Notes: a model not told the origin generated them from the sequence alone. Shown: positions 21,518 to 56,444, counted from the stretch's first letter. The stretch: DNA of 64,000 bases from an uncultured delta proteobacterium (GCA_963791285.1 CAWBSC010000023.1:259818-323817); one strand, 5' to 3'. Translations and numbers: made by a program.

Positions 21518-21526
21518 TGCGAGGTG

Positions 21527-39016: not shown

Positions 39017-39071
39017 AAGAGCTCCTGTTTTGATCGTGTGTTTTCGCTCGACAGGCAAGAGCTCCAGAGGA

Positions 39072-39098
39072 CATCGCGGCTGGAAAGCCGCTCCCACA
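39072..39098 (-). repeat. REP-like 27-nt element (exact inverse of 1712-1738)
   Basis: CATCGCGGCTGGAAAGCCGCTCCCACA. Confidence 0.75.
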
Positions 39099-39126
39099 AA
39101 GAAGACGGGTGGTCTTTTCCCTCGGT

Positions 39127-39153
39127 CCCTTGACCCCTGGACCCCTTGGCCCC
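39127..39153 (-). repeat. canonical G-quadruplex motif on the mRNA-sense strand, 1 nt after the ilvD stop
   Basis: The minus strand reads GGGG-CCAA-GGGG-TCCA-GGGG-TCAA-GGG. Confidence 0.75.
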
Positions 39154-39154
39154 T

Positions 39155-40825: not shown

Positions 40826-40906
40826 GGTGGTCCCTCCGTAACGAGGTGGTTCGGTTGACGAGGTGCGCGTGACGAACGATTCCCGGGGCATCCCGCTCGG
40901 GTGCGT

Positions 40907-42430
40907 CTACCCGGGGCCCGGGGATGGCGCCGGGGCCGCTTCGCGACGGATCAGCCGCATGACGCTTCGGATCACGACAGGTCCGACCAGGGCGAGGAGC
41001 CCCGTCGCCAGGATGACGGCCGAAATGGGGCGGGCGATAAAAATCGATAGATCCCCGCGGCTGATCATCATGGCCTCCCGGAAGCTCCTCTCCATCATCG
41101 GGCCGAGCACCAGCGCCAGAACCAGCGGGGCCAGATCGTACTTGAGGTGCCGCAGCAAGTACCCCAGCAGTCCGAAGCCGATCATCAGCCAGAGGTCCAG
41201 GACCGAGTTGTTGACCGAGTAGACGCCGATCAGGCACAGCAGCATCACGATCGGCATCAGCAGATACAGCGGCGTGCGGATGATGCTCGCGAAAAACCCC
41301 ACGAGCGGGAGGTTGAAGATCAACAGCATGAAATTGCCGATGTACATGCTGGCGATCACGCCCCAGAACAGGTCGGGCTTCTCGTTCACCAGCTGCGGCC
41401 CGGGGTTGATCCCGTTGATGATGAGAACCGCCATGACCACCGCCATGACGGGCGTGAACGGAATGCCCAGCGCCATCAGCGGGACGTAGGCGGCTCCGAC
41501 CGCCGAGTTGTTGGCCGCCTCCGGGCCGGCGACCCCTTCGATGCTGCCTCGGCCGAACTCGCCGTGGCGGTCGAGCTTGCGCTCGACCGAGTAGGAGACC
41601 ATGGTCGCGATGACCGGCGACGGGCCGGGCACGAGGCCGACGAAGAAGCCGATGAACGAGCCTCGGATGATCGGCCAGAAAGAGCGCTTCCATTCCACGA
41701 GGGTCGGCCAGAGCTCCCGGAAGCGGACCTTCTGCAGCTGCACGCTGGAAACCTTCTCCTCCGCCGTCACGAGCACTTCCGAAATGCCGAAAAGCCCCAT
41801 CGCGACCGGGAGAAAATCGATCCCCTGGGCCAGGAGCGGCTGCCTGAAGGTGTAGCGCATGTAGCCCGCGACGGTTTCCATGCCCACCGTGCCGAGCGCG
41901 AGCCCGATGCCGATCATCATCAGCGATTTCATCAGCTCCCCGCCGGTCAACCGCGACATGATCACCAGCCCGACCAGCGCGACCGTGAAGTACTCGGGCG
42001 GCCCGAACTTGAGCGCGGCCCGGGCGAGCGAGGGCGCGATCAGGCTCAACCCGATCAGGCTGATGGTGCCGGCGATGAACGACCCGATCGCGGCAACCGC
42101 CAGGGCCGCACCGGCCCGGCCGCGGCGCGCCATCTGGTAGCCTTCGATGACCGTGATGACCGAAGCCGCCTCGCCCGGGATGTTGAGCAGGATCGAGGTG
42201 GTCGACCCGCCGTACATCGCGCCGAAGTAGATGCCGGCGAACAGGATCATGCCGGCGATCGGGTCCAGTCCGTAAGTCAGCGGCAGCAGCAGCGCCATGG
42301 TGCCCAGAGGCCCCAGCCCGGGCAGGATGCCGATGACCGTCCCGATGACGGCCCCCAGGAACCCGAAGAAGAGGTTCAGGGGCGTCAGCGCGACTGAAAA
42401 GCCGTGCAGCAGACCACTCGAAAAATCCAT
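40907..42430 (-). CDS. tctA: tripartite tricarboxylate transporter large permease TctA
   Basis: 507 aa, polytopic, with a typical TctA N-terminus (LLHGFSVALTPLNLFFGFLGAVIGTVIGILPGLGP). Confidence 0.85.
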   Translation of the reverse strand: MDFSSGLLHGFSVALTPLNLFFGFLGAVIGTVIGILPGLGPLGTMALLLPLTYGLDPIAGMILFAGIYFGAMYGGSTTSILLNIPGEAASVITVIEGYQMARRGRAGAALAVAAIGSFIAGTISLIGLSLIAPSLARAALKFGPPEYFTVALVGLVIMSRLTGGELMKSLMMIGIGLALGTVGMETVAGYMRYTFRQPLLAQGIDFLPVAMGLFGISEVLVTAEEKVSSVQLQKVRFRELWPTLVEWKRSFWPIIRGSFIGFFVGLVPGPSPVIATMVSYSVERKLDRHGEFGRGSIEGVAGPEAANNSAVGAAYVPLMALGIPFTPVMAVVMAVLIINGINPGPQLVNEKPDLFWGVIASMYIGNFMLLIFNLPLVGFFASIIRTPLYLLMPIVMLLCLIGVYSVNNSVLDLWLMIGFGLLGYLLRHLKYDLAPLVLALVLGPMMERSFREAMMISRGDLSIFIARPISAVILATGLLALVGPVVIRSVMRLIRREAAPAPSPGPG

Positions 42431-42452
42431 GGTCAGTTTCTCCTATCCCGAC

Positions 42453-42941
42453 CTATCCCAGGACATCGTCGAGGATGCCAAGCGGCAGGGGAACCTTGAG
42501 CCACATCACGAAGGCCACGTAGGAGACGGCAGTCAGGACGACCGCCATCCCCAGGGCGGGGACCCACCGGCGGAAGCCGAAAATGCGGATGGCGACCAGC
42601 AGGAAAATGCAGATGCACACCGGGAAGCCGAGCGGCTGCAGCGCGAGGACATAGGCCACCATCAACCCCATGAGCGGCACCGTTTTGCCGCATGCGGCGC
42701 CGGGCGAGGCGCCCGCGGCCTGCAGCGCATCGTCCGATCGGGCGGATGCGCCTCTGAGTCTCAGGATCTCGCGGGCCAGGCACCCCAGCGCCGTCGTCAG
42801 CAGGAAGACCCCGACAATAATGGGGTAGAGGCCCGGCCCCGGGTGGTGGATCGACCCCCGCGGCATGCCGATCGCCATGACTTCATAGACGACGGCGACG
42901 GCGATCATGACCGACGGGAACAGCAGCGCGCTCAGCTTCAT
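42453..42941 (-). CDS. tctB: tripartite tricarboxylate transporter small subunit TctB
   Basis: 162 aa from MKLSALLFPSVMIAVAVVY, with four TM helices. It lies between tctC and tctA. Confidence 0.7.
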   Translation of the reverse strand: MKLSALLFPSVMIAVAVVYEVMAIGMPRGSIHHPGPGLYPIIVGVFLLTTALGCLAREILRLRGASARSDDALQAAGASPGAACGKTVPLMGLMVAYVLALQPLGFPVCICIFLLVAIRIFGFRRWVPALGMAVVLTAVSYVAFVMWLKVPLPLGILDDVLG

Positions 42942-42997
42942 GCGGAACCCTTTCGCATGGAAAACGGGAGGGGGCGGGCCCCCCTCCCGGCGGGAGC

Positions 42998-43981
42998 TCA
43001 TTTGCCGGCTGTGGCTTCCTTGCCGTACTTGTCCCAGAGCGGCCGGTAGATCTCGCCCAGCCGGGTCATGAAGGTCGAGAATTCCGCCGGCCCCATGTAG
43101 TCGGCCGGGAAAGCGGTCTTCGCGGCGTTCTCCTTGAATTCCTGCGACTCCATGACGTCCTTCACCGCTGCCGCGAACTTGTCCACGATCGCCTTGGGGG
43201 TCTTCGCGGGCATGCCGAAGCCGCGGGCGCTGCCGCTCGTGAAATCGTAGCCGAGCTCTTTGAAGGTGGGCACGTCCGGCAGGAAAAGGGAGCGCTTGTC
43301 AGTCATGACGGCGAGGGCCCGCAGCGCGCCGGCTTTCACCTGCGGGTAGACGATGCCGAGGTTGTTGGCGGAGGCGTCGACGTGCCCGGCCAGCGCGGCC
43401 TGCCAGGAGGGGCCGTCGCCCGAGAAGGGCACGATGTTGTACTTCGTTCCGGTCGCCTGCTGCAGCATGTGCATGGCGAACCAGTCGTCGCCGGGGGCCG
43501 ACGCGACGCCGACGCTGATGGTGGCCGGCTTCTCCCTGGCCGCCTGGATGAAGTCGGCCAGGGTCTTGTAGGGGCTCTCGGCCCGCACCACCAGGATGCC
43601 GGGGTCCGTGACGACGTTCGCCACGAATCCGAGGTCAGAGATTTTGTAGGCGGTCTCGCGTACGTAGGCGTTGATGGGGATCATCGGAGTGGTGGTGACG
43701 ACGACCGTGTAGCCGTCGGGCTTGGACACCGCCAGTTCGGTCAGCGCGATGTCGCTCCCGGAGCCCGGCTTGTAGACCGGGACCAGGGTGGTCTTCAGGA
43801 CCCGCTCGAGCTGCGGCCGGATCATGGACAGCATCACGTCGCTGCCGCCCCCGGGCGCGTAACCGATCAGGACGTTGATCGGCTTGCGGGGGTAATCGGC
43901 GTCGGCCGACTTGCCCTGGGCCGACAGGTTGGTTGCGAGGAGCACACAGCCCAGAACGACGAGAACGGACTTCTTGAACAT
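42998..43981 (-). CDS. tctC: tripartite tricarboxylate transporter substrate-binding protein (TctC/Bug family)
   Basis: Signal peptide MFKKSVLVVLGCVLLATNLSA, YPRKPINVLIGYAPGGGSD, and an AAGGAGA RBS. Confidence 0.85.
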   Translation of the reverse strand: MFKKSVLVVLGCVLLATNLSAQGKSADADYPRKPINVLIGYAPGGGSDVMLSMIRPQLERVLKTTLVPVYKPGSGSDIALTELAVSKPDGYTVVVTTTPMIPINAYVRETAYKISDLGFVANVVTDPGILVVRAESPYKTLADFIQAAREKPATISVGVASAPGDDWFAMHMLQQATGTKYNIVPFSGDGPSWQAALAGHVDASANNLGIVYPQVKAGALRALAVMTDKRSLFLPDVPTFKELGYDFTSGSARGFGMPAKTPKAIVDKFAAAVKDVMESQEFKENAAKTAFPADYMGPAEFSTFMTRLGEIYRPLWDKYGKEATAGK

Positions 43982-44226
43982 TGGCAGTCTCCTTGTTTGA
44001 GAGGTGCGGAAAGCCTCGGTGGCCATCGCAGGAGGTTCCCGATGCCGCGAATGTTTCCTTTACCGTACCCGGCAGAACAAGTGGAGTGCTTTTTTTTGAC
44101 GCATCCCTATCCTGTCGCAGCCGGGTCGATCAGGGGCATGGGCTGATGCGGTACCCGGGTCGACGAGATGCGTCGCATCCGCCTGAACGACGTGTGCGGG
44201 GACCCGGGCGTATCGATCCTGTAGGC

Positions 44227-45507
44227 TCAAATCGGCAGCAGCCAGTCCGGCAGCAGCATGACCGCGGAGGGCAGATAGGTGACCAGGGCCAGAACGACGA
44301 TGAGGGCGCCGATGAAGATCGCGCACTCGCGCGTGAACTCGGCGATGGTGATCTTGGCGATCCCGCACGAGATGAACATGCACACTCCGACGGGCGGGGT
44401 CAGCTGACCGATCGCCGTGTTGACCGTCACGATGATCCCGAAGTGCACCGGGTCGATGCCCAGCTTGGTGATCAACGGCATGAAGAACGGCACCATGACG
44501 ATGATGATCGCGGTGGGGTTCATGAAGCACCCCAGGATGAGCAGCACGATGTTGACCATCAGCAGGATGGCCCAGGGTTCGCGCGAGATGGAAAAAAAGA
44601 ATGTCGTCATCATCTCCGGGATGCGTTGATAGGACAACACCCACCCGAGCACGTTGGCCGTGGCGATGATCAGCATCACAACGGCGGTCGAAACCGCGGC
44701 GTTCATGAAGATCTTCGGCAGCTCGCGGGTCTTCAATTCGCGATAGACAAACGCGCCGACGAGGTAGGCGTAGACGACCGCGATCACGGCCGCCTCGGTC
44801 GGGGTGAACACCCCCCCTAAAATTCCGCCCAGGATGATGAGCGGCATCACCATGGCCCAGAACGAGGAGTAGAAGCTGCGCCATATCTGCGCCAGGCCGG
44901 CGCGCGGCTCCCTCGGGTAGCCGCGCCGTGTGCTGATGACGTAGGCCACGCCCATCAGGAAAATCCCCATGACCACCCCGGGGATGACCCCCCCCAGAAA
45001 GAGCCGCCCGATGGAGACGTTCGCGATCGACCCGTAAACGACCATCGGGATGCTCGGCGGAATGATGGGGCCGATGGTCGAGGCCGCGGCGGAGATGGCG
45101 CCCGCAAAGGAGGGGCTGTAGCCGCGCCGGATCATGGTCGGGATCAGGATGGCGCCGGTCGCGGCCGCGTCGGCCGCGGCCGACCCGGAGATCCCGGCCA
45201 TGATCATGTTGGTGACCACCACCACGTGCGAGAGGCCGCCCACGATGTGGCCGACCAGTTTGTCCGCGAAATCGACCAGGCGCTGGGTGATCCCGCCGCT
45301 GTTCATCAGTTCGCCCGCCAGGATGAAGAACGGGATCGCCAGGAGCGAGAAGGAGTCCACTGCGACGAACATGCGCTGCGTCACCACCGCGAGCGGGACG
45401 TCGCCCTGGGCGATCAACGCCGCGAGCGCGCTGATTCCGAGCGTGAACGCGAGCGGGGTCCCGACGAACAGGAAGACCAGCAGGCCGAGCAACAGGATGA
45501 GCGTCAT
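44227..45507 (-). CDS. dctM: TRAP transporter large permease DctM
   Basis: 426 aa, polytopic, with a typical DctM N-terminus. It overlaps the dctQ stop. Confidence 0.9.
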   Translation of the reverse strand: MTLILLLGLLVFLFVGTPLAFTLGISALAALIAQGDVPLAVVTQRMFVAVDSFSLLAIPFFILAGELMNSGGITQRLVDFADKLVGHIVGGLSHVVVVTNMIMAGISGSAAADAAATGAILIPTMIRRGYSPSFAGAISAAASTIGPIIPPSIPMVVYGSIANVSIGRLFLGGVIPGVVMGIFLMGVAYVISTRRGYPREPRAGLAQIWRSFYSSFWAMVMPLIILGGILGGVFTPTEAAVIAVVYAYLVGAFVYRELKTRELPKIFMNAAVSTAVVMLIIATANVLGWVLSYQRIPEMMTTFFFSISREPWAILLMVNIVLLILGCFMNPTAIIIVMVPFFMPLITKLGIDPVHFGIIVTVNTAIGQLTPPVGVCMFISCGIAKITIAEFTRECAIFIGALIVVLALVTYLPSAVMLLPDWLLPI

Positions 45508-45980
45508 CGGTCACCCGCCTTGCATTCCGACGGGAAGCGGAACCGCTGCACCATCTGGATGAGCGTGCAGACTGCCATGAGGGCGAACCCGATCGGCACG
45601 GCCGACATCACCAGGCCCATGGGGATCTCGAGGGCAGCCGACTGCTGGATCATGTTCTGCTCGGCCATCCGAAACCCCTGGTAGCTGATGAACACCAGGA
45701 ACGCCAGGACCGAGAGATCGCCGAAAAGCAGCGTGTACCGCTTCCAGACGGGCGGCAGCTTCGCGACGCAGACATCGAAACCGATGTGCACCCCCTTCTG
45801 CAGGGCCACCACCGACCCGAGGAAGGATATCCACACGAAGAGGTAGCGCGCCGCTTCCTCAGACCAGTACAGCGAGTAGCCGATCAGGTAGCGGAACACG
45901 ACCTGGGCGAAGGTCACCACGACCAGCACGAAGAAGGCGACCGAGATGACCGGGGTAAGGATCCGGTTGATGAACCCCAC
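45504..45980 (-). CDS. dctQ: TRAP transporter small permease DctQ
   Basis: 158 aa with four TM helices and the YWSEEAARYLFVW motif. Confidence 0.85.
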   Translation of the reverse strand: MGFINRILTPVISVAFFVLVVVTFAQVVFRYLIGYSLYWSEEAARYLFVWISFLGSVVALQKGVHIGFDVCVAKLPPVWKRYTLLFGDLSVLAFLVFISYQGFRMAEQNMIQQSAALEIPMGLVMSAVPIGFALMAVCTLIQMVQRFRFPSECKAGDR

Positions 45981-46038
45981 GGCATGTCTCCTGGGTTGGA
46001 AGTTGGAGTGATGAACGGTTGCCGACGATGCGACGGAT

Positions 46039-47032
46039 TCACTTGCTTGTGCGGATCTGCTCGATCAGCTCGACCGCCTTCAGTTTCTCGCCGTATTCCG
46101 TGTAGATGGGCCGGACGGCCGCGCGGATCGGGGCCATGTCCGGGGAGGTGATCGTGACCCCGGCCGCCTTCAGCTTGTCGAAGTAGTCCATCTCCGCCTT
46201 GATGGTGACGTCCGTGAGCCACCGGCCGGCTTCCGCCGCGCTTTCGGCGATCGCTTTCCGGGTGCCCGCCGGCAGCCCGTCATAGTACTTCCCGTTCACG
46301 ATCAGCATGGTGCAGTTGTAGATGTGCCGTGTGGGGCAGAGAAACTTGGCCACCTCGTGGAGCTTGGTGTTGTAGATGCTGTCCGGGGCGGACTCCATCC
46401 CCTCCACCACCTTGGTCTGCAGGCCGGTGTAGATTTCGCCCCAGGGCATGGGGGTGGGGTTGGCGCCGAGCAGGCGGAAGATGCGCGAGTACACGGGCGA
46501 CTCGGGGACGCGGATCTTCAGGCCCTTGAAGTCGTCCAGGCCGTTGACCGGCCGGACGGAGAGGACGTCGCGGAAGATGGTGTCGAACCACGCCAGGACG
46601 ACCACGCCGGTCTTTTTCTTTATGGCCTCGATCATCTGCTGCCCGATGGGGCCGTCGAGGACCTTGTGGACGTGGGTGATGTCGGTGAAGAGGAACGGCA
46701 GGTCCAGCACCCCGATGAGGGGTTCGAAGTTGACGATGGTCGCCGGGTTCGCGAGCGACATCTGCACCGAGCCCATCCGCACGCCTTCGAGGTTGTCCCG
46801 TTCGTTGCCGAGCGACCCGCCTGGGAAGACCTGGACTTCGACCTCTCCTCCCGTTTTCTGGGCCACGAGCTTGGCGAACTCGTCCAGGGCCAGGTTGCGG
46901 TTTTCGGTGGGCGGCAGGTGGTGGGCCACCTTGATCACGGTCTTGGCCTCCGCCGGGTCAAAGCCATCCGCAGCAGGCGGCGAGGACAAACAGGCAGCAG
47001 AGCACGATCCGAAACATCGCGTGGGTGTTCAT
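46039..47032 (-). CDS. dctP: TRAP transporter substrate-binding protein DctP (apparent frameshift in the signal-peptide region)
   Basis: The mature domain is intact from 46989 (TTG in the ORF track). A good start (GGAGGG RBS, ATG 47032) encodes MNTHAMFRIVLCCLFVLAACC in a different frame and stops after 24 codons. Confidence 0.7.
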
Positions 47033-47095
47033 GGGGTCCCTCCCGTTTTCCGATGGTGGTTGTGAACGAATCTCGCTTCAGGCCGAGCGGACGGC

Positions 47096-49000
47096 TCAGC
47101 TCGGTTGCATGAGGCGCTTGACGAGCGGCACGGCACTGCCGGCGTCCTTGGCATACCCGTCCGCGCCGATGTCGTGCGCGAATTTCTCGTTCAGCGGCGC
47201 CCCGCCGACAATGACCTTGAGCCCGTCGCGCAGGCCGGACTCGGCCAGCTGCCGGATGATGGACTTCATCTCCGGCATCGTCGTGGTGAGCAGGGCCGAA
47301 AGGGCCAGCACGTCCGGCCGATAGTCCTGGACCTGCTTCAGGAACTCCTTGGCGGGCACGTTGATGCCCAGATCGCGGATCTCGAAGCCGACCCCGCGCA
47401 GCATCGTGGCAACGATGTTCTTGCCGATATCGTGCAAGTCCCCGCGCACGGTGCCGATCAGGACCTTGCCCGCCCTCCGCATCTTGTCCTTCGACAGGAA
47501 CGGCTCGAGCGTTGCGGTCGCTTCGTTCATGGCGCGCGCGGACAGCAGCACCTCCGGGATGAACACTTCGCCGTTGCGGAACCGCTCGCCGATGACCTCC
47601 ATCGCGGGCAGCATGCCCTTCTGCAGGATGTCGCCGGCGTCAACGCCCATTTGCAGCAACGCCTTCACATGCTGCGTGATCGCCAGGTGGTCGCCCGTGA
47701 GCACGTCGGCCTGGACGTTTTCGAATCCCTGCGCGAAACTGAAGGCCGTGCGAGGCGCCGCGGCCACGTCCGCGGGTGCGAAGACCGGGTTGAACCCCCC
47801 GGCCTCGATCGGCAGACGGGCCTCCTCCGCGATGCGCTGCCCGATGCGGCGGATGCGGTCGAAGACCGCGTTGGGGGGAACCGAGTCGGCGATGCCGAAG
47901 ATCATCCGCCGGCCCGGGGCGACCGCCTTGAAGAGGTGCGTCATGTAAGCGTCGAACTCCTCGTCGCTGGTGCTTTCCGCCAGGAGCAGGATGGACGGGA
48001 TTCCCCCGTAGATCGTGAGCGTCCGGCTCCACCGCGCGTAGTACTCGTCCATCGTGACCTTGGTCATCGGGTGCGGCGTCACGGCCTCGGCCACGTGCAT
48101 ACCCGAGTCGCGGATCAGATCCATCAGCCCCCTGTTCTCGCCGTCGCAGTGGCAGGAAATGTAGATCCCCTGGGCGCCCAGGGTATCGGCCGCTTTGCGG
48201 ATCCACGGCATGATATCCGCCTCGAAGTACGCGGGGTAGGTGATCATGTCGTCGAAGTTGGCCCCCCAGTAGACGGCCTCAGCGGGCGAGCGGCCGATGA
48301 GGTCGATGGTCTGGTCGAAGAAGGGGGCCATGCTCTCGGCGAGCGCCGTCATCTCGCGCCGGTGGTCCTTGTAGTGGAAAAAGAACTCGGTCGCGTCGAT
48401 GAAGTACTTCTGGATGTGGTGCACCGGGGACGCGGCGCGGCCCGCCATGGTGAAGGCCAGGCCGTCTTCGCCGATGTCCCGCTTCCAGGCAACGAAGTCG
48501 TCCCAGTCCGGATGGAGTTTCAGGTTGGCGAAGATGTGGGCCAGGGGCGCGTAGTCTTTTGCCGTCTTGATCGGATGCTCCTCAATGTTGAATCCGGTGA
48601 CCCCCGCCCGCCGCATGGCCTCGGTGAACACGATGCACGTGCTGACGTCCCCCCGGGGGGTGTGGTAGGTGATGCGCGTACGCCCGTTGTCGTGCCGGAT
48701 GTCGACGTCCACGTCCGAGGGCAGCGTGTAGTTGAAGACCATCTCCTTGAAGGAGAGGATCCCCAGCCCCCAGTGGATGTGGTCCTCGGGCCGGCGGACA
48801 TCCTGGTAGGCGGGGTTGATCTTGTGCAGTCCCCAGCCTTCGGCGCGCGAGATCTCGTCCTGGGTGCAGTCCCGGTACGTGGCCGGCAACCCGCCCAGGC
48901 TCTTCTGGGCCGAGTACCAGAGGTCCAGCCGGGGGGCGAAGGGGATGACGTCCGGCATCTCCCCCCTGATCGCCTTCAAGATGCGTTGCTTGTTGGTCAT
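47096..49000 (-). CDS. URO-D-like methyltransferase fused to a corrinoid-binding module (CmuA/MtaA-plus-corrinoid-protein architecture)
   Basis: 634 aa. The N-terminal about 400 aa is a uroporphyrinogen-decarboxylase-family fold. This is followed by a B12-binding_2 cap (GDILQKGMLPAMEVIGERFRNGEVFIPEVLLSARAM) and a B12-binding domain with DxHxxG (GDLHDIGKNIV), ALSALLTTTM and VIVGGAPL. Confidence 0.8.
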   Translation of the reverse strand: MTNKQRILKAIRGEMPDVIPFAPRLDLWYSAQKSLGGLPATYRDCTQDEISRAEGWGLHKINPAYQDVRRPEDHIHWGLGILSFKEMVFNYTLPSDVDVDIRHDNGRTRITYHTPRGDVSTCIVFTEAMRRAGVTGFNIEEHPIKTAKDYAPLAHIFANLKLHPDWDDFVAWKRDIGEDGLAFTMAGRAASPVHHIQKYFIDATEFFFHYKDHRREMTALAESMAPFFDQTIDLIGRSPAEAVYWGANFDDMITYPAYFEADIMPWIRKAADTLGAQGIYISCHCDGENRGLMDLIRDSGMHVAEAVTPHPMTKVTMDEYYARWSRTLTIYGGIPSILLLAESTSDEEFDAYMTHLFKAVAPGRRMIFGIADSVPPNAVFDRIRRIGQRIAEEARLPIEAGGFNPVFAPADVAAAPRTAFSFAQGFENVQADVLTGDHLAITQHVKALLQMGVDAGDILQKGMLPAMEVIGERFRNGEVFIPEVLLSARAMNEATATLEPFLSKDKMRRAGKVLIGTVRGDLHDIGKNIVATMLRGVGFEIRDLGINVPAKEFLKQVQDYRPDVLALSALLTTTMPEMKSIIRQLAESGLRDGLKVIVGGAPLNEKFAHDIGADGYAKDAGSAVPLVKRLMQPS

Positions 49001-49038
49001 TCACTCCTCCTTCGGTGCGTGTGGACGGCCCGCGGGCC

Positions 49039-50229
49039 TCAGCCCATCTCGAAAATTTTCCGGTGCATTCTGAACGACCGGGTTCGCGCTCCGAGGAGCG
49101 ATGCTGCCAGCGGTCGGGTCAGCCGGCGAAAGGGCTCAATGTCGGTCTGGATGAACACCGCGCCTTGCCGGATCATCTTCGCCTTGTCGTCCGACCAGAG
49201 TTGAAGCGTTTGGGCGGAGTAGTCGCGGCCGGCCTCCGTGCTCACCTGATGGAGCGCGGCCTGCAGGTCCTTGCGCAGTGACTGGAAGCTGGCTTCGCCG
49301 ATCAACAGGCAGGCGCGCGAGTACAGGTGACGGGTGTGCGTGATGTAGCGCGCCAGCCGGTGCAACCCGGCGTCGCGGATCGCGTCACGCGGCACGTCCG
49401 CAGCATCCACCTCCCCCGTTTCGAGGCAGCGCCGGATATCGCGGAAGGCGGACGGCACGGGGACGGCCCCCAGCGCCTCCCAGTGGCGATGGTAGCTGGG
49501 AATGGGCGGCACGCGCAGGCGCAGGCCGGCCAGGTCCCCCACGGTCATGCACGGCCGCTTGGCGATCAACACGCGGGAGGGCCTGAGCCAGTTGTCGGCC
49601 AGGACCCGCACCCCGCATTTCACGCGCACCCGATCCCTCAGCTCGGCCGCGATCTGGCTTTCCACGAAATCCCGCACATGCGCGAGATCCCGGAACAGAA
49701 AGGGGATGTTGGTGATGCCGTACACCGGGTCCAGCTTCTCCAGCCAGTCTGCCGCGGCACCAAACATCTCCAACTCGCCATTGCAGAGCATGGCCAACTG
49801 CTCGGTGTCCGACCCGATGCGCGAGGATGGGACCACGTCCACACACACCTGGTTGCGCGTCAGCTCCGCCATCCGGCGGGCGAACTGGGTCTGCGATTTA
49901 ACGATGAAGGATTCGGGGGGGTAGATGGCCCCCAGCCGCAGCCTCACGCCGGTCGGCGAGGGATCGCCTTTCATCCGCAGCGGGGCGACGAAGCTCCCCG
50001 CCCCCTGCCTGCGGGTGACCAGGCCTTCGTGAGTCAGGAGTTGCAGAACGTAGCGCGCGGTGTGCCGGCTGACCGCGAACTGCTCCGCGATCGCCTTTTC
50101 CGTGGGCATGCGTTCGCCGGGGAGATATTTCCCGGAAGCGATGAGGGCCTTCAGATGGCTGTGGATCTGGCGGTAGCGCGGGGCGCCGTCATGCAAGGGC
50201 GAGGAGTGGGGGGGCGCGATGGGTCCCAT
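49039..50229 (-). CDS. GntR-family winged-helix regulator fused to a DctP-like (TRAP solute-binding) domain
   Basis: 396 aa from MGPIAPP. The GntR HTH is RYRQIHSHLKALIASGKYLPGERMPTEKAIAEQFAVSRHTARYVLQLLTHEGLVTRRQGAGSFV. About 300 aa follow, similar in pattern to DctP proteins (GSDTEQLAMLCNGELEM...ITNIPFLFRD...). Confidence 0.7.
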   Translation of the reverse strand: MGPIAPPHSSPLHDGAPRYRQIHSHLKALIASGKYLPGERMPTEKAIAEQFAVSRHTARYVLQLLTHEGLVTRRQGAGSFVAPLRMKGDPSPTGVRLRLGAIYPPESFIVKSQTQFARRMAELTRNQVCVDVVPSSRIGSDTEQLAMLCNGELEMFGAAADWLEKLDPVYGITNIPFLFRDLAHVRDFVESQIAAELRDRVRVKCGVRVLADNWLRPSRVLIAKRPCMTVGDLAGLRLRVPPIPSYHRHWEALGAVPVPSAFRDIRRCLETGEVDAADVPRDAIRDAGLHRLARYITHTRHLYSRACLLIGEASFQSLRKDLQAALHQVSTEAGRDYSAQTLQLWSDDKAKMIRQGAVFIQTDIEPFRRLTRPLAASLLGARTRSFRMHRKIFEMG

Positions 50230-50428
50230 GAATTTGTATGGTTTTGCGTACAACCCGGCATTATGCGGGTTGAACGAAAAAGTCAACCGCTGTCGGGTTC
50301 CGCGCATCCGGGCCGGTGCAGGCCTCTCCGGCGGTCGATCCCGCTCCCGCCCGTACGACGCATTTCGGCTACGGTTGACGTATGTCGTTGCCGGACCAGT
50401 CAGTCGCCTCTCCGGCGTCGAACTGCCA

Positions 50429-50457
50429 TTGACATCCCATTTTGTCATATGATAACT
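50429..50457 (+). promoter_or_regulatory. possible sigma-70 promoter for the LacI-family gene, overlapped by a TGACA-N8-TGTCA palindrome
   Basis: TTGACA (50429-50434), a 17-nt spacer, then ATAACT (50452-50457). The palindrome spans 50430-50447. The start codon is only about 9 nt downstream, so the mRNA would be near-leaderless. Confidence 0.3.
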
Positions 50458-50465
50458 GACGCCCC

Positions 50466-51503
50466 ATGGGAAAACGATTGCCCACGCCCCCGACCCTGAA
50501 GGACGTCGCGAGCCTGGCCAAGGTCAGCATCCCCATCGTGTCCAAGGTCCTCTCCGGCAACCCGCAGGTCCGGGTGAGCGCGGACACCCGGCAACGCATC
50601 CAAAAAGCCGCCAGCCGCCTGTCATACCGCCCGAACGCTTCCGCCCGCAGCCTCAAGGTCAAACGCACGTACACCCTTGCCCTGTTCGTGCCCGATGTCG
50701 GAAACCCGGTCATCCCCGAGATCATACGGGGGGTCGAGTCCGGCGCCCGCGAGCGCGGCTACTCGGCGTTCGTGAGCCACCTCGATGAAAAGGCGACTCG
50801 GGACCGGCTCTACCTCACGTGGCTCCAGGAGGGACGCTTCGACGGGTTGATCATCGCGACCACGCGGGTGGAGGATGCGATCATTGCCGATTTGATCCGG
50901 TCGGGACGGCCGTTCGTGCTCGTCAACCGCCGGGAGGCTTCGACCAACCAGCACATCACCGTGGACGATGCCGGCGGGGCCCGGGTCGCCGTGGCACACC
51001 TGGCGGCGTTGGGCCACCGTCGCATCGCCCACCTGGCCGGCCCCCTGCTGTTCGACACCGCCCTGCGGCGCCTTCAAGGCTACCGCCAGGAGCTGAGCAC
51101 CCATGGGATCCCCTACGACCCGGGGCTGGTGCAGGAGTACGAGTGGCACACCTGGGAAGGCGGCAAGACCGCGATGAATCGTCTGCTCCGGAAGAAGCGG
51201 CGGCCGACAGCGGTTTTCGCGGGCAACTTAATGGGAGCGGTGGGGGCGCTGAGCGCCGTCAAATCGGCGGGAATCAAGGTCCCGGAGGAGATGTCGATCA
51301 TCGGACTCCACGACTCGCCGATAGCGGATGTGCTCGATCCGCCCCTCACGGTGGTGAGAATGCCGTTGTACGAAATGGGAAAGGGGGCTTCGGCCATGCT
51401 CGTCGATCTGCTGGAAGAGCGGGCGGAGGTGGCCCCGCTCATGCTCCCGTGCGGCGGGCTGGTGACTCGGAGATCGACCTGCCCCTGCCCGACAGGGGCA
51501 TGA
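50466..51503 (+). CDS. LacI-family transcriptional regulator
   Basis: The N-terminal HTH is TLKDVASLAKVSIPIVSKVLSG, followed by a periplasmic-binding-protein-like sugar-binding core. Confidence 0.9.
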   Translation: MGKRLPTPPTLKDVASLAKVSIPIVSKVLSGNPQVRVSADTRQRIQKAASRLSYRPNASARSLKVKRTYTLALFVPDVGNPVIPEIIRGVESGARERGYSAFVSHLDEKATRDRLYLTWLQEGRFDGLIIATTRVEDAIIADLIRSGRPFVLVNRREASTNQHITVDDAGGARVAVAHLAALGHRRIAHLAGPLLFDTALRRLQGYRQELSTHGIPYDPGLVQEYEWHTWEGGKTAMNRLLRKKRRPTAVFAGNLMGAVGALSAVKSAGIKVPEEMSIIGLHDSPIADVLDPPLTVVRMPLYEMGKGASAMLVDLLEERAEVAPLMLPCGGLVTRRSTCPCPTGA

Positions 51504-51554
51504 GGGCTTGAACCTGGAACCCAAGCGAGCAAACGATTAACCCCGGAGGGCAAA

Positions 51555-52544
51555 ATGAGAATGAACCGGCGCACCATCACCATCACCTGCATGTTCCTGA
51601 CCTTGGCGATCCTGTGGGCCGTCCCGGCCAGTGCCGCCCGCACCCTGAAGTATGGCCACAACACCAAGGAAAACCAGCCGACCGGCAAGGCCGCGCTCCT
51701 GTTTGCCGACCTGGTTCAAAAGAAGACCAACGGCGAAATCGTGGTCCAGGTGTTCCCCAACAACCAGCTGGGCAACAACAAGCAGATGGCGGACAACCTG
51801 CGCATGGGCGCCCTTGACCTGAGCACGATGGGGCTCGCCGCCCTGGCCTATCTGAACGACGCCTACATGATGATGCAAGTGCCCTACGTGTTCCGCTCCC
51901 AGGAACACATTCACAAGGTCGTCAACGGCGAGATCGGGCAGCAGCTGAAGGCCGATTTCGCGCAGAAGAACGGGATCGTCCTGTTGGCGCAGGATTGGGA
52001 CCGGATGCCCCGGCACATTGCCGGGCGAAAACCCATTCGCACGCTCGAGGACTTCAAAGGCTACAAAGTCAGGGCCGGAGTGCTTCCGCCGATTGTCGGC
52101 TTCAAGGCCATCGGTGCGAGCCCGGTGGACATCCCGCTGAACGAGATGTACCTCGCGCTTCAGCAGGGGGTGGTGGACGGAGCCGAGCTGCCGACGGACT
52201 ACATCTACGAGTACTCCATCTTCGAGGTCAGCAAGTATTTCAACAAGACCTCCCACACGTTCGGGACGCAGTTCCTCGGGATCAACAAGCGCGTGTGGGA
52301 CTCGCTCAAGCCCGAACACCAGAAAGCCATCCAGGAGGCGGCCGACGAGGCCGGGAGATTCAACAACAAGCTGGATGCCGAGCTGCAGGATGACTACATC
52401 GAAAAGCTGAAAAAAGGCGGCATGGAATTCGTCGACACCGACGTGGAGGCGTTCCGGAAGGCCACCTTCGAGAAGATCAACGAGATCTCCAAGAACTGGG
52501 AAGGCGGGGCCAAGCTCTTCGAGCGGATTCAGGCGACCCAATAA
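51555..52544 (+). CDS. dctP: TRAP transporter substrate-binding protein DctP
   Basis: 329 aa with a signal peptide and LKYGHNTKENQPTGKAA. GGAGGG RBS is present. Confidence 0.9.
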   Translation: MRMNRRTITITCMFLTLAILWAVPASAARTLKYGHNTKENQPTGKAALLFADLVQKKTNGEIVVQVFPNNQLGNNKQMADNLRMGALDLSTMGLAALAYLNDAYMMMQVPYVFRSQEHIHKVVNGEIGQQLKADFAQKNGIVLLAQDWDRMPRHIAGRKPIRTLEDFKGYKVRAGVLPPIVGFKAIGASPVDIPLNEMYLALQQGVVDGAELPTDYIYEYSIFEVSKYFNKTSHTFGTQFLGINKRVWDSLKPEHQKAIQEAADEAGRFNNKLDAELQDDYIEKLKKGGMEFVDTDVEAFRKATFEKINEISKNWEGGAKLFERIQATQ

Positions 52545-52598
52545 ATGGGTACGACGGGCGGCCGGGCGGCGAACCGGACCCCCACGTGGAGGCGGACA

Positions 52599-54431
52599 AT
52601 GGAAACGTTCTTCAGCTTTCTGGACCGAGTGGAGCATTCTCTCAAGTGGGTGTGCATGGCCCTCGTGATCGGGCTGAGCCTGCTCGTGTTCTCCTCCGTG
52701 ATGTTCCGCTACCTCCTGAACAGCCCGATCGAGTGGGCGGACGAGGTCGTCGGCTTCTTCATCCTGGGGCTGACGTATTTCGGGTCGGCCGTGGCCTGTA
52801 GCCGCCGTTCCCAGATCTATGTTGAAATCGTGGAATCGGCCCTAAAGAAGAAACCCGGAGCCCTGCGATGGGTGCGGATCGGCGTGGACACGGTCGTGAT
52901 GATCGCGCTGGTCGCGATGGTGTTCGTCGGGCTTCAGCTCTGCGTCGACTGCCGCACCCAGAAGACCGGCATCCTCGTGCTGAGCTATTTCTACGTTTAC
53001 CTGATCATGCCGGCCGGCGTGTCCTTCATGATTCTCATGATGATCAAAAAGCTGATCCAGGACACGCGGGAAGGCAAAGCGCCGAAGACCGCAGCAGCTC
53101 CACAGATCGGCCGCTATGCATCGAACCCGGGCAGGAGGGAATCATTCATGTTGAGCCTGTTGATCGGAGGGCTGCTGTCGCTGATGGCCACCGGGATCCC
53201 CATTGCGGTGTGCATGCTCATGATCGGCATCATTTACATGATCCAGCAGGAAATCCCGCTCATGGTGGCCGCACAGTACATGACCGAGGGCGCCATGCTG
53301 AACGTCCTCATCGCCATCCCGCTGTACCTGCTCACGGGGGTGCTGATGAACGAGGTGGGGATGAGCCACCGCATCGTACGGCTCTGCAACGCCGTGGTCG
53401 GGCACATCCGGGGCGGGCTGGCCATCGTGAACGTGATGGCCTGCATGATCTTCGCGGGCATGACCGGCGAGGCGGTGGCCGAAACCGCGGGCCTGGGCTC
53501 GGTCATGGTGCCCGCCATGGAGAAGGACGGCTACGACAAGCCGTTCGCCTCGGCGCTGACGGTCACGGCGGCCGTGATCGGCCCGATCATTCCGCCCTCC
53601 GTGCCCATGATCATCTGCTCGGCCCTGGCATCCCTGAGCGTAGGGCGGATGTTCCTGGGAGGCATGATCCCGGGGATCCTCTTCGGGGTGCTCCTGATGG
53701 GCCTCAGCTATTTCTACGCGGTGCGGCGCAACTACCCCATCAAGGCCAAGGCCGCCAAGGGCGAATTCTGGGTTTCGCTCAAGGATGCCTGCTTCGGGCT
53801 CCTGACGATCTTCATCATTTTGGGGGGGATCTTCACCGGGGTGTTCACACCGGTGGAGGCGGCCGGCATCGCGGCCGTTTACAGTTTCCTGGTGGGCCTC
53901 TTCATCTATCGCAGCCTCGACCTGAAAAAGCTGCCGAAGATGTGCCTCGATGTGGCCGTGAGCACGGGCGTCATCATGTTCATCATCGCCATGGCCGGGC
54001 TTTATAATTTCGTGTTGACCCGCGAGCGGATCCCGCAGGAAGTCATCCGCCTGGTCATGGGCGTCAGCCAGGACCAGACCGTTCTCCTGATTATGATCAG
54101 CATCGGACTGTTCATCCTGGGCTGTTTCCTGAGCACCACCCCGGCGCTGCTCCTGGTGGTGCCGGTCCTCTCGCCCCTGGTGCAGCAGGCGACCTTTCAC
54201 CCGATCCACTTCTGGGTGGTCATCGTCCTGGCGCTGTTGCTGGGAACGCTCACGCCTCCGGTCGGGATCAACCTTTACCTGATCACCAGCATTTCCGGTG
54301 TAGGTACCGGGCGGTTGATCAGGGAATTGCCGCCGTTCTACATGGTGCTCATCTCCGTGATCTTCATCGCGATTTTCTGCCCATGGATCGTGACCGCTCC
54401 CGGGGATTGGGTATACGGAACGCGGGTATGA
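52599..54431 (+). CDS. TRAP transporter fused DctQ-DctM permease
   Basis: 610 aa in a single ORF. A DctQ-like N-terminal 4-TM part joins through a short linker to a DctM-like part (MLSLLIGGLLSLMATGIPIAV...). GGAGG RBS is present. Confidence 0.85.
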   Translation: METFFSFLDRVEHSLKWVCMALVIGLSLLVFSSVMFRYLLNSPIEWADEVVGFFILGLTYFGSAVACSRRSQIYVEIVESALKKKPGALRWVRIGVDTVVMIALVAMVFVGLQLCVDCRTQKTGILVLSYFYVYLIMPAGVSFMILMMIKKLIQDTREGKAPKTAAAPQIGRYASNPGRRESFMLSLLIGGLLSLMATGIPIAVCMLMIGIIYMIQQEIPLMVAAQYMTEGAMLNVLIAIPLYLLTGVLMNEVGMSHRIVRLCNAVVGHIRGGLAIVNVMACMIFAGMTGEAVAETAGLGSVMVPAMEKDGYDKPFASALTVTAAVIGPIIPPSVPMIICSALASLSVGRMFLGGMIPGILFGVLLMGLSYFYAVRRNYPIKAKAAKGEFWVSLKDACFGLLTIFIILGGIFTGVFTPVEAAGIAAVYSFLVGLFIYRSLDLKKLPKMCLDVAVSTGVIMFIIAMAGLYNFVLTRERIPQEVIRLVMGVSQDQTVLLIMISIGLFILGCFLSTTPALLLVVPVLSPLVQQATFHPIHFWVVIVLALLLGTLTPPVGINLYLITSISGVGTGRLIRELPPFYMVLISVIFIAIFCPWIVTAPGDWVYGTRV

Positions 54432-54445
54432 GGAAAGGAAAGCAT

Positions 54446-56197
54446 ATGAATTCAAGAGAACGGGTCCTTGCGGTGCTGAACGGTGAGATCCCGGACCGGG
54501 TCCCCTGGATCGAGAATTTCATCTCCAACGAAGTCATGGCGGGGCTGGCCGGGAACACCGAGTTCGTGCACGCCACCTATTCCCAGAAGATCGAGACGCC
54601 CGGCATGATCCGGATCCCGCCGGAAATCCACCGGCTGATCCCGCTCGACAACATCAGCTACGACCTCGCCCCACCGCGCTTCGCCAAGACCGAGCGCATC
54701 GACGGGCACGACCACATCACCGAAGGGCTCATCAAGGAACAGGCGGACCTCCGCTACCTGGATGCGCTGCCCGACCCGGACGACGAAGCGCTCTACCGGC
54801 CGGCGGAGGAGTTCCTGCGGCGTTACAAAGGCGACCTGGCCGCGATCGCGACCGTGCGGACCGGCCCCGGGAATACCTATCTGTCCATGGGCATCGACCG
54901 CTTCTGCACCAAGCTCGTGACCGACCCCGAGCTGGTCAAGGCCATCCTCTGGCGGTTCAGCCACTGGAGCCGGCGGGTGGCGATCAACATGCAGGAGCTG
55001 CCGTTCGATCTCTTCTTCATCCCGGACGACATCGGCTTCGGCCACGCCCCGATGATCTCGCCCGCGCATTTCCGCGAGTTCTGCGTCCCGGTCATGCGCA
55101 ACGTCATGGACGCCGTGAAGCTGCCGGTCATCTACCACAGCGACGGGAACATCATGCCGCTCATGGAGGAGATCATCGGGCTCGGCGTGGCCGGGATCGC
55201 CAACATGGAGCCGGGCCCCATGGACATCGAGGAGGTGAAGCGGCTCTATGGCGACCGCGTGACCATCGTCGGGAACATCGACCTGCATTACACCTTGACC
55301 AAGGGGACCCCGGAGGAAACCCGCGACGAAGTGCGGCGGCGGATTGAGGCCCTGGCACCCGGCGGCCGATATATCCTGGCAAGCGCCAACTCGCTGCCCA
55401 ACTACGTGAAGCCGGCAAACGTGCGCGCCATGGGGGAGGCGCTCATGCAGCACGGGGTCTACACGGATCGACTCAAGGCCAACGTCCGGCCGCGACAGCA
55501 GGCTGCGCCAAAGGCGCCGCAGCCCGTGGCGGCTGCGCCGCAAGCGGGGCCGCAGGTGGCTCCCCCCATCCAGGCCATCCGGAACGCCATCATCGGGCTC
55601 GAGCGGGAGAAAATCGGCGATTTGGTTCGAAGTGCGGTGGCCGCCGGCTGCCCGGCCGAACAGATCATCCAGGACGGGTTCATCGCGGCCATGGATCAGG
55701 TCGGGAAGAGCTTCGCCGCGAACACGATCTTCGTCCCCGAGATGATGGTGTCGGCCATGACCATGAAGGAAGGGCTGGAACTGGTGAAACCCATGCTCCA
55801 GGGCCAGAACGCCTTTTCCCGCGGCCGGGTCATGCTGGCCACGGTCAAGGGCGACCTCCACGACATCGGAAAAAACATCGTCGGTATGATGCTCGAGGGC
55901 GCGGGGTTCGAAGTCATCGACCTCGGGATCAACATCGATTGCCCGGCGATCCTCCGGAAGGTTCGTGAACTGCAGCCGAAGGTCTTGGGGCTCTCGGCCC
56001 TGCTGACGACCACCATGCCCGAGATGGCGCGTGCCATCCAGGAGTTGCACTCAGACGGGCTGCGAAAGCAGGTGAAGGTCATGGTCGGTGGAGCGCCGCT
56101 CAGCGCGAAGTTTGCCGGTGAGATCGGGGCTGACGGCTACGCAGCCGATGCGGCCACCGCTGTTGATCTCTGCAGAAAGCTTACCGACACCTTGTGA
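54446..56197 (+). CDS. URO-D-like methyltransferase fused to a corrinoid-binding module (second, divergent paralog)
   Basis: 583 aa with an N-terminal URO-D-family fold and an Ala/Pro/Gln linker. These are followed by a B12-binding_2 cap (IIQDGFIAAMDQVGKSFAANTIFVPEMMVSAMTM) and a B12-binding domain (GDLHDIGKNIV, LSALLTTTM, VMVGGAPL). Confidence 0.8.
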   Translation: MNSRERVLAVLNGEIPDRVPWIENFISNEVMAGLAGNTEFVHATYSQKIETPGMIRIPPEIHRLIPLDNISYDLAPPRFAKTERIDGHDHITEGLIKEQADLRYLDALPDPDDEALYRPAEEFLRRYKGDLAAIATVRTGPGNTYLSMGIDRFCTKLVTDPELVKAILWRFSHWSRRVAINMQELPFDLFFIPDDIGFGHAPMISPAHFREFCVPVMRNVMDAVKLPVIYHSDGNIMPLMEEIIGLGVAGIANMEPGPMDIEEVKRLYGDRVTIVGNIDLHYTLTKGTPEETRDEVRRRIEALAPGGRYILASANSLPNYVKPANVRAMGEALMQHGVYTDRLKANVRPRQQAAPKAPQPVAAAPQAGPQVAPPIQAIRNAIIGLEREKIGDLVRSAVAAGCPAEQIIQDGFIAAMDQVGKSFAANTIFVPEMMVSAMTMKEGLELVKPMLQGQNAFSRGRVMLATVKGDLHDIGKNIVGMMLEGAGFEVIDLGINIDCPAILRKVRELQPKVLGLSALLTTTMPEMARAIQELHSDGLRKQVKVMVGGAPLSAKFAGEIGADGYAADAATAVDLCRKLTDTL

Positions 56198-56367: not shown

Positions 56368-56444
56368 GCCCCTGTAGCTCAGTGGATAGAGCACCAGATT
56401 CCTAATCTGGGTTTGCGCAAGTTCGATTCTTGCCAGGGGCACCA
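56368..56444 (+). tRNA. tRNA-Arg (CCT)
   Basis: Acceptor GCCCCTG/CAGGGGC, anticodon arm CCAGA-TTCCTAA-TCTGG, T arm GCAAG-TTCGATT-CTTGC, encoded CCA. Confidence 0.9.

Follow-up and report, generated by a model that had tools for sequence, protein, structure and literature searches.

The 64,000-nucleotide stretch of DNA analysed here (the window; GCA_963791285.1 CAWBSC010000023.1:259818-323817, from an uncultured delta proteobacterium) carries, at positions 44,227 to 56,197, two divergent cassettes, each of which joins genes for a tripartite ATP-independent periplasmic (TRAP) transporter to a gene for one large protein combining a uroporphyrinogen decarboxylase (UroD)-fold barrel with a corrinoid-binding module. 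We refer to the minus-strand and plus-strand cassettes as A and B, and to their large proteins as fusion A and fusion B. Judged by homology and gene neighbourhood, the fusions are members of two widespread, uncharacterised enzyme subfamilies that are genetically hard-wired to carboxylate importers, and public annotation names them only "corrinoid protein" or "uroporphyrinogen decarboxylase". Each cassette probably imports a methylated organic acid through its TRAP transporter and removes the methyl group by corrinoid chemistry, a reading that we favour with some reserve. Corrinoid-dependent demethylation has been described mainly from acetogens, methanogens and a few methylotrophs, with methoxy-aromatics, methylamines, betaines, methylsulfides and halomethanes as the known substrates. 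If the proposed function is correct, the cassettes would represent a route for the methyl groups of organic acids into the tetrahydrofolate (THF) one-carbon (C1) pool in sediments, wetlands and groundwater.

Architecture of the two fusion proteins

Open reading frames (ORFs) were listed, genes were called with GC3 weighting, and domains were assigned by Pfam and NCBIfam profile scans. All nine genes of the divergent layout described in an earlier sequence-only reading were recovered, at the coordinates and with the domains given there. On the minus strand, the order is a GntR–DctP-domain regulator (49039..50229), fusion A (634 aa, 47096..49000), dctP-A (46039..47032), dctQ-A (45504..45980) and dctM-A (44227..45507). 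On the plus strand, a LacI-family regulator (50466..51503; PF00356 and Peripla_BP_3) is followed by dctP-B (51555..52544), a fused dctQM-B (52545..54431) and fusion B (583 aa, 54446..56197). A divergent intergenic spacer of 236 bp (50230..50465) lies between the starts of the two regulator genes, and the GC content of the cassette region, ~63-66%, is that of the window in general. The start of fusion B at 54446 is backed by a 100%-identical database protein (P0121) and further by the N-terminus MxSRERV, which is common to fusion A, fusion B and the chloromethane enzyme CmuA. For fusion A, an exact look-up gave no database record.

The transporter domains of cassette B all exceed their cut-offs and are intact: the solute-binding protein DctP-B matches PF03480 with 254.6 bits, and the 628-aa DctQM-B carries the small permease (PF04290) at residues 45-175 and the large permease (PF06808) at 208-615. 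Cassette A likewise encodes all three domains, in the large permease DctM-A (PF06808, 431.5 bits; TIGR00786, 459 bits, over cut-off), the small permease DctQ-A (PF04290, 126.8 bits) and the solute-binding protein DctP-A (PF03480, 287.7 bits), but dctP-A is frameshifted by a one-base insertion. Alignment with the wetland-sediment metagenome contigs L067, L068 and L069, which are 96-98% identical and lack the extra base, showed that an additional A at 46958 brings a TGA in frame after the signal peptide (which starts with the ATG at 47032) and before the mature domain, so that the ORF as sequenced covers 46039-46989. Deleting this base in silico restored a 330-aa DctP-A precursor with its signal peptide, and dctM-A is 99% identical to the L067 copy across the aligned part. 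The frameshift may reflect either a real pseudogene or a sequencing or assembly error.

The C-terminal halves of both fusions are, by profile and motif, canonical methyltransferase-type corrinoid modules, predicted to bind cobalamin in the base-off/His-on form. PF02607 (the B12-binding_2 cap) and PF02310 (B12-binding) exceed their cut-offs in both proteins, and in fusion A, where a linker separates barrel and cap, the two domains occupy residues 431-499 and 511-623. The motif DxHxxG-x41-SxL-x28-GG is complete in both, with D521 of fusion A and D470 of fusion B as first residues; the cap and DxHxxG domain that the sequence-only reading had assigned to both proteins are thus present with a canonical His-on ligand context. 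Against NCBIfam models, the corrinoid domains score 160-232 bits with methyltransferase corrinoid proteins (MtgC, MtbC) versus 25-36 bits with the photoreceptor CarH. The top match of both is the MtgC model (232 and 195 bits, under its cut-off of 370), and TIGR02370 gives 187.5 and 174.8 bits for the two fusions, under its cut-off of 215.3. The nearest solved corrinoid relatives are the Moorella protein 1y80, MttC (7xcn) and the Desulfitobacterium protein 4jgi. Fusions A and B share 37% identity over their C-terminal ~380 residues, and their barrels are only remotely alike.

The barrel of fusion B clearly belongs, by profile scores, to the UroD family and lies nearer to MtaA/CmuA than to HemE. 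It matches URO-D (PF01208) with 89.8 bits (cut-off 23.9), PRK06252 with 72 bits and mtaA_cmuA (TIGR01463) with 63.9-65.2 bits, far below the cut-off of 235.4 for the last; the HemE model TIGR01464 yields only 18.5 bits against a cut-off of 302.95. Affinities were judged by comparing hidden Markov model (HMM) scores with CmuA and E. coli HemE, and an HMM of the B-type subfamily gave 28 bits with the CmuA N-domain versus 9 bits with HemE. No Cys is invariant in the B-type alignment, and fusion B has H-S-D...N in place of the Cys ligands of the MtaA/CmuA zinc site.

The barrel of fusion A is a more distant case. URO-D reaches 20.3 bits, under the same cut-off, the N-domain matches no NCBIfam model, including TIGR01463 and TIGR01464, at E values up to 10, and it scores ~0 bits with both CmuA and HemE in the HMM comparison. 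Aligned with B-type UroD proteins by hhalign, however, the fusion A family gave a probability of 97.8% (E 1.3e-12) over 328 columns, that is, over the whole domain. Because the corrinoid domain dominated the full-length fold search, the N-domain was modelled alone. The AlphaFold2 model has a pLDDT of 92.7 and comprises a barrel of about residues 1-395 with a ~45-residue beta insertion at about 80-125. All 14 of its 14 significant Foldseek matches in the PDB are HemE or MtaA (TM 0.5-0.64). Profile alignment and the predicted structure together show the N-domain of fusion A to have a UroD fold despite the sub-threshold Pfam score, and by HMM comparison A-type proteins are a deep, separate UroD subfamily and not members of MtaA/CmuA. 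The URO-D domain claimed at the outset for both fusions thus passes the Pfam cut-off in B and was established in A by hhalign and the model; neither N-domain groups with HemE, since B scores only 18.5 bits with that model and A does not match it. The string C283-H284-C285-D-G-E-N is invariant in 38 of 38 aligned members of the fusion A family, as is D372, at the position of the distal Cys of CmuA. This Cys-His-Cys arrangement with D372 is a possible metal site that differs from H-x-C...C.

The domain order of both fusions, with an N-terminal UroD-superfamily barrel and a C-terminal corrinoid domain in one polypeptide, is that of CmuA, for which we used the cmuA copy on pCMU01 (NC_011758.1) of Methylorubrum extorquens CM4. 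Barrel, cap and B12 domain of fusion B align colinearly with those of CmuA, at 22% identity, and one tblastn piece spans fusion B residues 198-550; the CmuA-type architecture initially proposed is borne out by the domain coordinates and by this alignment. The active-site residues differ. CmuA has N-T-Q, with Gln and no His ligand, where A and B have D-L-H, and it keeps an H-T-C...C zinc motif where B has H-S-D...N and A has C-H-C...D. In addition, the CmuA substrate is a gas without an importer, and the retrieved cmuA stretch contains folD and purU but no TRAP genes. By architecture, A and B are CmuA-like while lying outside the curated MtaA/CmuA family (TIGR01463). CmuA is a fusion of a substrate-side methyltransferase (MT1) and a corrinoid protein (CP) that works with a separate acceptor-side methyltransferase (MT2) and THF as acceptor, and the UroD superfamily also includes the MT1 of O-demethylases and halomethane dehalogenases (PMC13222342, PMC9768040). 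Since zinc is dispensable in some O-demethylase MT1 enzymes (PMC13222342), the lack of Cys ligands in fusion B would fit such a role.

Gene neighbourhoods of the B-type and A-type subfamilies

Orthologs of fusion B share 61-98% identity with it, and its barrel has stand-alone UroD counterparts of 75-79% identity. Three contigs with otherwise unrelated flanks, L076, L077 and L078, have the same order LacI-dctP-dctQ-dctM-fusB, with identities to the window copies of 49-75% for LacI, 61-67% for DctP, 56-68% for DctQM and 61-73% for the enzyme. DctQ and DctM are separate genes in these contigs and fused in the window. FolD directly follows the fusB cassette in L078, and no MT2 adjoins the cassette in L076-L078. 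Two further relatives of 78-79% identity are split: L079 reads LacI-UroD-CP-dctPQM-Pterin_bind, and L080 reads LacI-UroD-CP followed by a DASS anion carrier. As the split barrel gene is followed by a gene for a 211-aa corrinoid protein, fusion B represents the joining of two adjacent genes. LacI regulator, anion importer and B enzyme are thus passed on as one unit, and at least one relative adds an MT2 of the Pterin_bind family to it; no other finding argues as strongly for uptake-coupled methyl transfer. With these three parts travelling together, cassette B is the firmer of the two cases, and the neighbourhood conservation looked for in related genomes was found for it as an orthologous module. 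In L080 (10001-17060), the split B system stands back-to-back with genes for an MttB-family methyltransferase, a second corrinoid protein and a BCCT carrier, so that two different predicted corrinoid demethylation modules are clustered there.

Fusion A gave more than 1400 word-index matches, among which full-length homologs of 57-96% identity bear no more specific annotation than "corrinoid protein" or similar. For the barrel alone, 1320 clusters at 50% identity were matched, 146 of them at E<=1e-30, and many of the matches are stand-alone proteins of ~400 aa. In GTDB representatives we found 66 A-type loci, nearly all in genomes labelled as metagenome-assembled genomes (MAGs), and by these labels the hosts are Desulfobacterota/Thermodesulfobacteriota, Ca. 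Adiutrix from termite guts, Burkholderiales or Betaproteobacteria, and a few Alphaproteobacteria.

Neighbours were counted within ~10 kb in the 58 of these 66 loci that have a called A-type fusion, using our own gene calling and clustering with Pfam on cluster representatives. A TRAP gene of any kind is present in 41 of the 58 loci, and 32 have one on the same strand within four genes. Another UroD-family protein occurs in 33/58 and a stand-alone corrinoid protein in 18/58. The partners that a methyl-transfer pathway would use are also found: a Pterin_bind MT2 (MeTr; 17 loci), the activase RACo (13), MTHFR (10), a homocysteine methyltransferase (HcyMT; 7) and Fhs (6). Three gene orders illustrate these contexts. 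Loci labelled Burkholderiales/Betaproteobacteria read PanB-like, GntR, fusA, FA_hydroxylase, dctP, dctQM, FAD oxidoreductase, CP, UroD, MeTr, RACo; MAGs of Desulfobacteraceae, Syntrophaceae and other deltaproteobacteria read MeTr, a fused UroD-CP of ~596 aa, dctPQM, fusA, RACo; and Adiutrix and related MAGs read dctPQM, GntR, UroD, UroD, LarA-like, fusA, glycerate kinase.

The transporters beside A-type enzymes are not orthologous to one another. Where the enzymes share 46-71% identity, the DctPs beside them reach no more than 22-36% with DctP-A, and the closest fusA orthologs (66-71%) adjoin non-orthologous TRAP, TAXI or TTT systems, and also lie near aconitase-like LeuCD pairs, an enolase-superfamily protein or an Ada-Ogt pair. 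Such a context would fit either frequent swapping of transporters around one substrate or a generic hub or acceptor-side role of the enzyme. Moreover, A-type and B-like (grp1) UroD enzymes often occur together in a single locus with a single TRAP system. Two divergent paralogs alone are thus no proof of two substrates, as had been proposed for the window; the two enzymes may act in one pathway.

Two other features of A-type loci were observed. In L071/L072 (9495-11917), a 67%-identical fusA ortholog overlaps the stop codon of Ogt by 4 bases, and Ogt itself follows an Ada-AlkA gene, which ties a corrinoid methyltransferase to an alkylation-damage operon. In L010, L017-L035 and similar loci (~5-20 kb) of MAGs labelled Burkholderiales or Betaproteobacteria, the A-type gene is flanked by genes for a PanB-like ketopantoate hydroxymethyltransferase, a membrane protein of the FA_hydroxylase family, a PhyH-family dioxygenase and a PF12831 FAD oxidoreductase; PhyH-family enzymes have been shown to demethylate 2'-O-methyl nucleosides (PMC12709175).

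A proposed route for the methyl group and its alternatives

In the proposed route, methyl transfer would be the task of the N-terminal UroD barrel, and the C-terminal cap and Rossmann domain, as predicted from sequence and model, would hold cobalamin base-off/His-on. Loading would proceed as in an MT1-CP fusion of the CmuA type, the barrel moving the substrate methyl group to Co(I) of its own corrinoid domain. By analogy with the relatives, methyl-Co(III) would then be unloaded to THF by a pterin-binding MT2, and adventitious Co(II) would be re-reduced by a RACo-type activase. THF is indicated as the acceptor because many A-type and B-type relatives adjoin Pterin_bind MT2, MTHFR and Fhs, and the resulting methyl-THF would enter C1 oxidation through MTHFR, FolD and Fhs. 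As for regulation, LacI would control cassette B and the GntR protein with its DctP-type sensor would control cassette A.

The MT2 and the activase would have to be encoded elsewhere in the genome. Searching the window by tblastn with the relatives' MeTr, RACo, MTHFR, Fhs and HcyMT matched only the two corrinoid domains, and Pfam scans of the remaining window genes revealed no MT2, activase, MTHFR or Fhs, in agreement with what had been noted from the sequence for MT2 and activase. In the aerobic proteobacterium Ruegeria pomeroyi, the genes for corrinoid protein, pterin-binding methyltransferase, Hcy-binding module, RamA and MetF2 lie dispersed in the genome and their products serve several functions (PMC12478193), so that shared, trans-encoded modules are already known from aerobic Proteobacteria. 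The Ruegeria split methionine synthase/MtgBCD glycine betaine system is likewise modular; its MT1, however, is of the MttB family rather than UroD and is unfused, and its transporter is a BCCT carrier.

The characterised three- or four-component O-demethylases and their relatives (MtvABC, OdmABCD, VdmB, MtoABCD, CdmBCA) are composed in a similar way, of a UroD-superfamily MT1, a corrinoid protein, an MT2 that uses THF and an activating enzyme, and the split B relative L079 matches this composition, with UroD, CP and Pterin_bind in one operon. MT1 and CP are unfused there and fused here; those systems occur in Bacillota and Archaea, whereas the fusions described here occur in Proteobacteria and Desulfobacterota and, unlike the O-demethylases, have a genetic link to importers of carboxylates and to regulators of the LacI or GntR type. 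The Methanosarcina dimethylsulfide and methylmercaptopropionate methyltransferases MtsA/MtsB, MtsD/F/H and MtpA/MtpC also pair a UroD-family barrel with a corrinoid module. Methanosarcina has both fused corrinoid/methyltransfer proteins (MtsD/F/H) and the bifunctional MtsA, so that one barrel can catalyse both half-reactions; the fused proteins place the corrinoid domain first and the methyltransferase second, the reverse of the order seen here. These systems are archaeal with coenzyme M as acceptor, and we know of no TRAP link for them. One of their substrates, 3-methylthiopropionate, is a methylated carboxylate (bioRxiv 10.1101/548461). Full-text literature searches found no characterised TRAP-linked UroD-corrinoid system or homologous locus, in line with the earlier reading, which knew of no characterised TRAP-linked system of this layout. 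The mlp gene clusters, considered as a possible equivalent, were set aside as a different assemblage in whose description TRAP is unmentioned (PMC10418091).

Several observations weigh against uptake-coupled demethylation. The window lacks an MT2 and an activase, both fusions fall far short of the TIGR01463 cut-off, fusion B lacks the Cys ligands of the zinc site, and the barrel of fusion A matches no NCBIfam model and is equally remote from CmuA and HemE. The non-orthologous DctPs beside A-type enzymes are unexpected for a substrate-specific MT1, and dctP-A as sequenced is frameshifted. Given the deep subfamily, the Cys-His-Cys site and the non-orthologous transporters, a substrate-side MT1 role is less certain for fusion A than for fusion B. 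On comparative-genomic grounds, then, the uptake-coupled demethylation originally proposed is supported by the importers and by Pterin_bind MT2, RACo, MTHFR and Fhs beside relatives; the MT1 role of fusion A and the existence of two substrates stand less firmly.

Two other explanations bear mainly on fusion A. A self-sufficient enzyme resembling MtsA or MtsDFH, in which one barrel would carry the methyl group from donor to cobalt and on to a thiol acceptor without an MT2, would fit fusion A best, and the imported acid would then be either the thiol acceptor or a methylthio compound, for instance 3-methylthiopropionate. The invariant C283-H284-C285 at the position of the CmuA/MtaA H-x-C zinc site, together with D372, agrees with this, as does the absence of an adjoining MT2 from the window and from L076-L078. 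We nevertheless think it unlikely, given B-type proteins without any conserved Cys, the many relatives of both types that adjoin Pterin_bind MT2, MTHFR and Fhs, and the reverse domain order of the Methanosarcina fusions. Alternatively, fusion A might be a corrinoid hub shared by stand-alone UroD MT1 enzymes, its barrel working on the acceptor side like an MT2, so that A and B-like proteins would form one pathway. The frequency of a second UroD-family protein in A-type loci points in this direction, as do the Adiutrix-type loci L040, L043 and L049, which have three UroD domains and, as their sole corrinoid domain, that of the A-type fusion. The good conservation of A-type enzymes beside non-orthologous transporters would also be accounted for, and UroD-type MT2 enzymes do exist, for example MtqA and bacterial MtaA (PMC13222342). 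However, cassette A in the window has its own TRAP system and a ligand-sensing DctP regulator with no other UroD gene in the operon, and a second MT2 would be redundant in the many A-type loci that already carry a Pterin_bind MT2; we therefore give the hub a rather small chance.

Explanations that detach the enzymes from imported methylated acids fare worse. The domain order shared with CmuA, and the occurrence of a fusA ortholog in the Ada-AlkA/Ogt operon of L071/L072, could be taken to mean that the fusions are halomethane (chloromethane-type) dehalogenases with unrelated TRAP neighbours. This is quite improbable, as gases need no importer and yet B is co-inherited with LacI and TRAP or DASS genes and A is enriched beside TRAP genes; moreover, both fusions keep the His ligand that is Gln in CmuA, and identity to CmuA is only 22%. 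A function without methyl transfer, with the B12 module as a light or B12 sensor or the barrel as a HemE-like decarboxylase of the imported acid, seems to us the most far-fetched. HemE has the same (beta/alpha)8 UroD fold and is among the best Foldseek matches of the A barrel, so that for fusion A the fold search cannot tell HemE and MtaA apart, and B12-binding with a cap also occurs in photoreceptors (PDB matches 8j2w, 5c8d). Still, HemE lacks a fused corrinoid module, its model scores far below cut-off with B and does not match A, the corrinoid domains score several-fold higher with methyltransferase corrinoid proteins than with CarH, and relatives co-occur with RACo, Pterin_bind and MTHFR.

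Candidate substrates, regulation and other features of the window

DctP-A and DctP-B share 33% identity. The nearest solved relatives of DctP-A are 4nq8, 4p47, 4p9k/4pak and 4pdh, and those of DctP-B are 4p47, 4pc9, 4x8r, 4ovr and 4xfe. We take 4nq8, 4p9k/4pak and 4pdh to form a pantoate/erythronate-binding cluster. Closed structures in that neighbourhood generally hold pantoate or erythronate, co-purified ligands that may be non-native, and 4x8r is glucuronate-bound (PMC11668362); other sugar-acid binders are also among the nearest solved relatives of DctP-B. Identities to all of these are too low for the specificity of DctP-A or DctP-B to be assigned. Transferring a substrate from A-type relatives with PanB-like, FA_hydroxylase and PhyH genes, or with LarA-like and glycerate kinase genes, was considered and rejected, as the DctPs there are only 22-36% identical to DctP-A and DctP-B and the fusA orthologs closest to the window copy have other neighbours (aconitase-like, enolase-superfamily or Ada-Ogt genes). 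The former set belongs to MAGs labelled Burkholderiales or Betaproteobacteria, the latter to Adiutrix and deltaproteobacterial MAGs.

For cassette B, methoxylated aromatic acids would be the textbook guess. Loci of relatives contain genes for glycerate kinase, LarA-like, PanB-like and PhyH proteins and no aromatic-ring enzymes, and the LacI control, the DASS alternative and this absence of aromatic-ring genes leave room for a methylated acid of aliphatic or sugar type. Guesses for B would span methoxylated aromatic acids and the O-methylated forms of sugar acids, hydroxy acids and dicarboxylates. For cassette A the guess covers the same classes or a methylthio-carboxylate, methylthio acids being kept in play by the Cys-His-Cys site. 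A bolder version, which we put forward as speculation and expect to be wrong more often than right by a wide measure, is that cassette B encodes a B12-dependent O-demethylase for a methylated non-aromatic acid and that fusion A represents a second UroD subfamily that has gone unrecognised, one with a Cys-His-Cys metal site, used by anaerobes and Burkholderiales. 4-O-methyl-glucuronate from xylan, a methoxy hydroxy acid or a dicarboxylate would fit cassette B, hints being the LacI regulator, the uronate binders near DctP-B and the dicarboxylate-type DASS carrier in L080. Methylated non-aromatic acids would then be a substrate class not known for corrinoid methyltransferases.

If the uptake-coupled function holds, cassette B would be a compact regulator-transporter-enzyme module in which the ligand of DctP-B should be the substrate of the enzyme, and the GntR regulator with its DctP-type sensor would offer a second handle on the ligand of cassette A. 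This 396-aa regulator combines a GntR helix-turn-helix (PF00392) with a cytoplasmic DctP-like domain (PF03480); it is 27% identical to DctP-A over 305 aa and has no signal peptide, and its start matches the gene calls in the ~96%-identical contigs L067 and L068. The spacer contains an inverted repeat at 50242-50281, with 16-nt arms TTTTGCGTACAACCCG / CGGGTTGAACGAAAAA and 8 nt between them, 13 nt upstream of the GntR–DctP start, which could be an operator. Promoter and terminator consensus scans gave nothing above shuffled sequences, a strict sigma-70 consensus scan of the spacer was likewise empty, and an Rfam search of the window returned tRNAs only and no cobalamin riboswitch.

On the 3' side of dctM-A, the minus strand carries genes for TctC, TctB, TctA, an IlvD/Edd-family dehydratase and an RraA-like aldolase (38294..44026; Pfam), which may form an operon, downstream of the cassette, that breaks down the demethylated acid. 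In the 96%-identical L067, too, dctM-A is succeeded by TctCB(A), and L070 has a TctCBA set after its fusA ortholog. No homologs of the relatives' PanB, FA_hydroxylase, PhyH, LarA-like or glycerate kinase genes were detected in the window by tblastn. Its other genes are unrelated in function and include hslUV, xerC, dapF, genes for PEP-CTERM proteins, NfeD, UDG, a CFA-synthase-like protein and TerC, as well as a pair of insertion sequences (IS) and a YhaN/YhaO-like pair.

Some further features of the window lie outside the cassettes. Two copies of a 1.64-kb IS (DUF772/DDE transposase, 500 aa), at 4728-6369 on the minus strand and 27506-29147 on the plus strand, are 99% identical and inverted, and bracket ~21 kb of apparently housekeeping genes. 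A 640-aa ORF at 21449-23371 on the plus strand joins a metallo-beta-lactamase domain (52-230) to a partial class-III aminotransferase (401-597) and represents an unusual fusion or else two genes that the ORF call ran together. At 30366-35152, on the minus strand, an AAA_27/SMC-like ATPase (ORF of up to 1419 aa) and a Metallophos phosphoesterase coincide with the GC maximum of the window, 74-75%, with long ORFs on both strands. Finally, a tRNA-Arg(CCT) gene lies 170 nt past the fusion B stop codon (56368-58350 region) and is followed by ~1.9 kb of lower-GC DNA (53% versus ~65%) without convincing ORFs, a 74-aa ORF lying at 57096-57320; this stretch may be the remnant of an integrated element.

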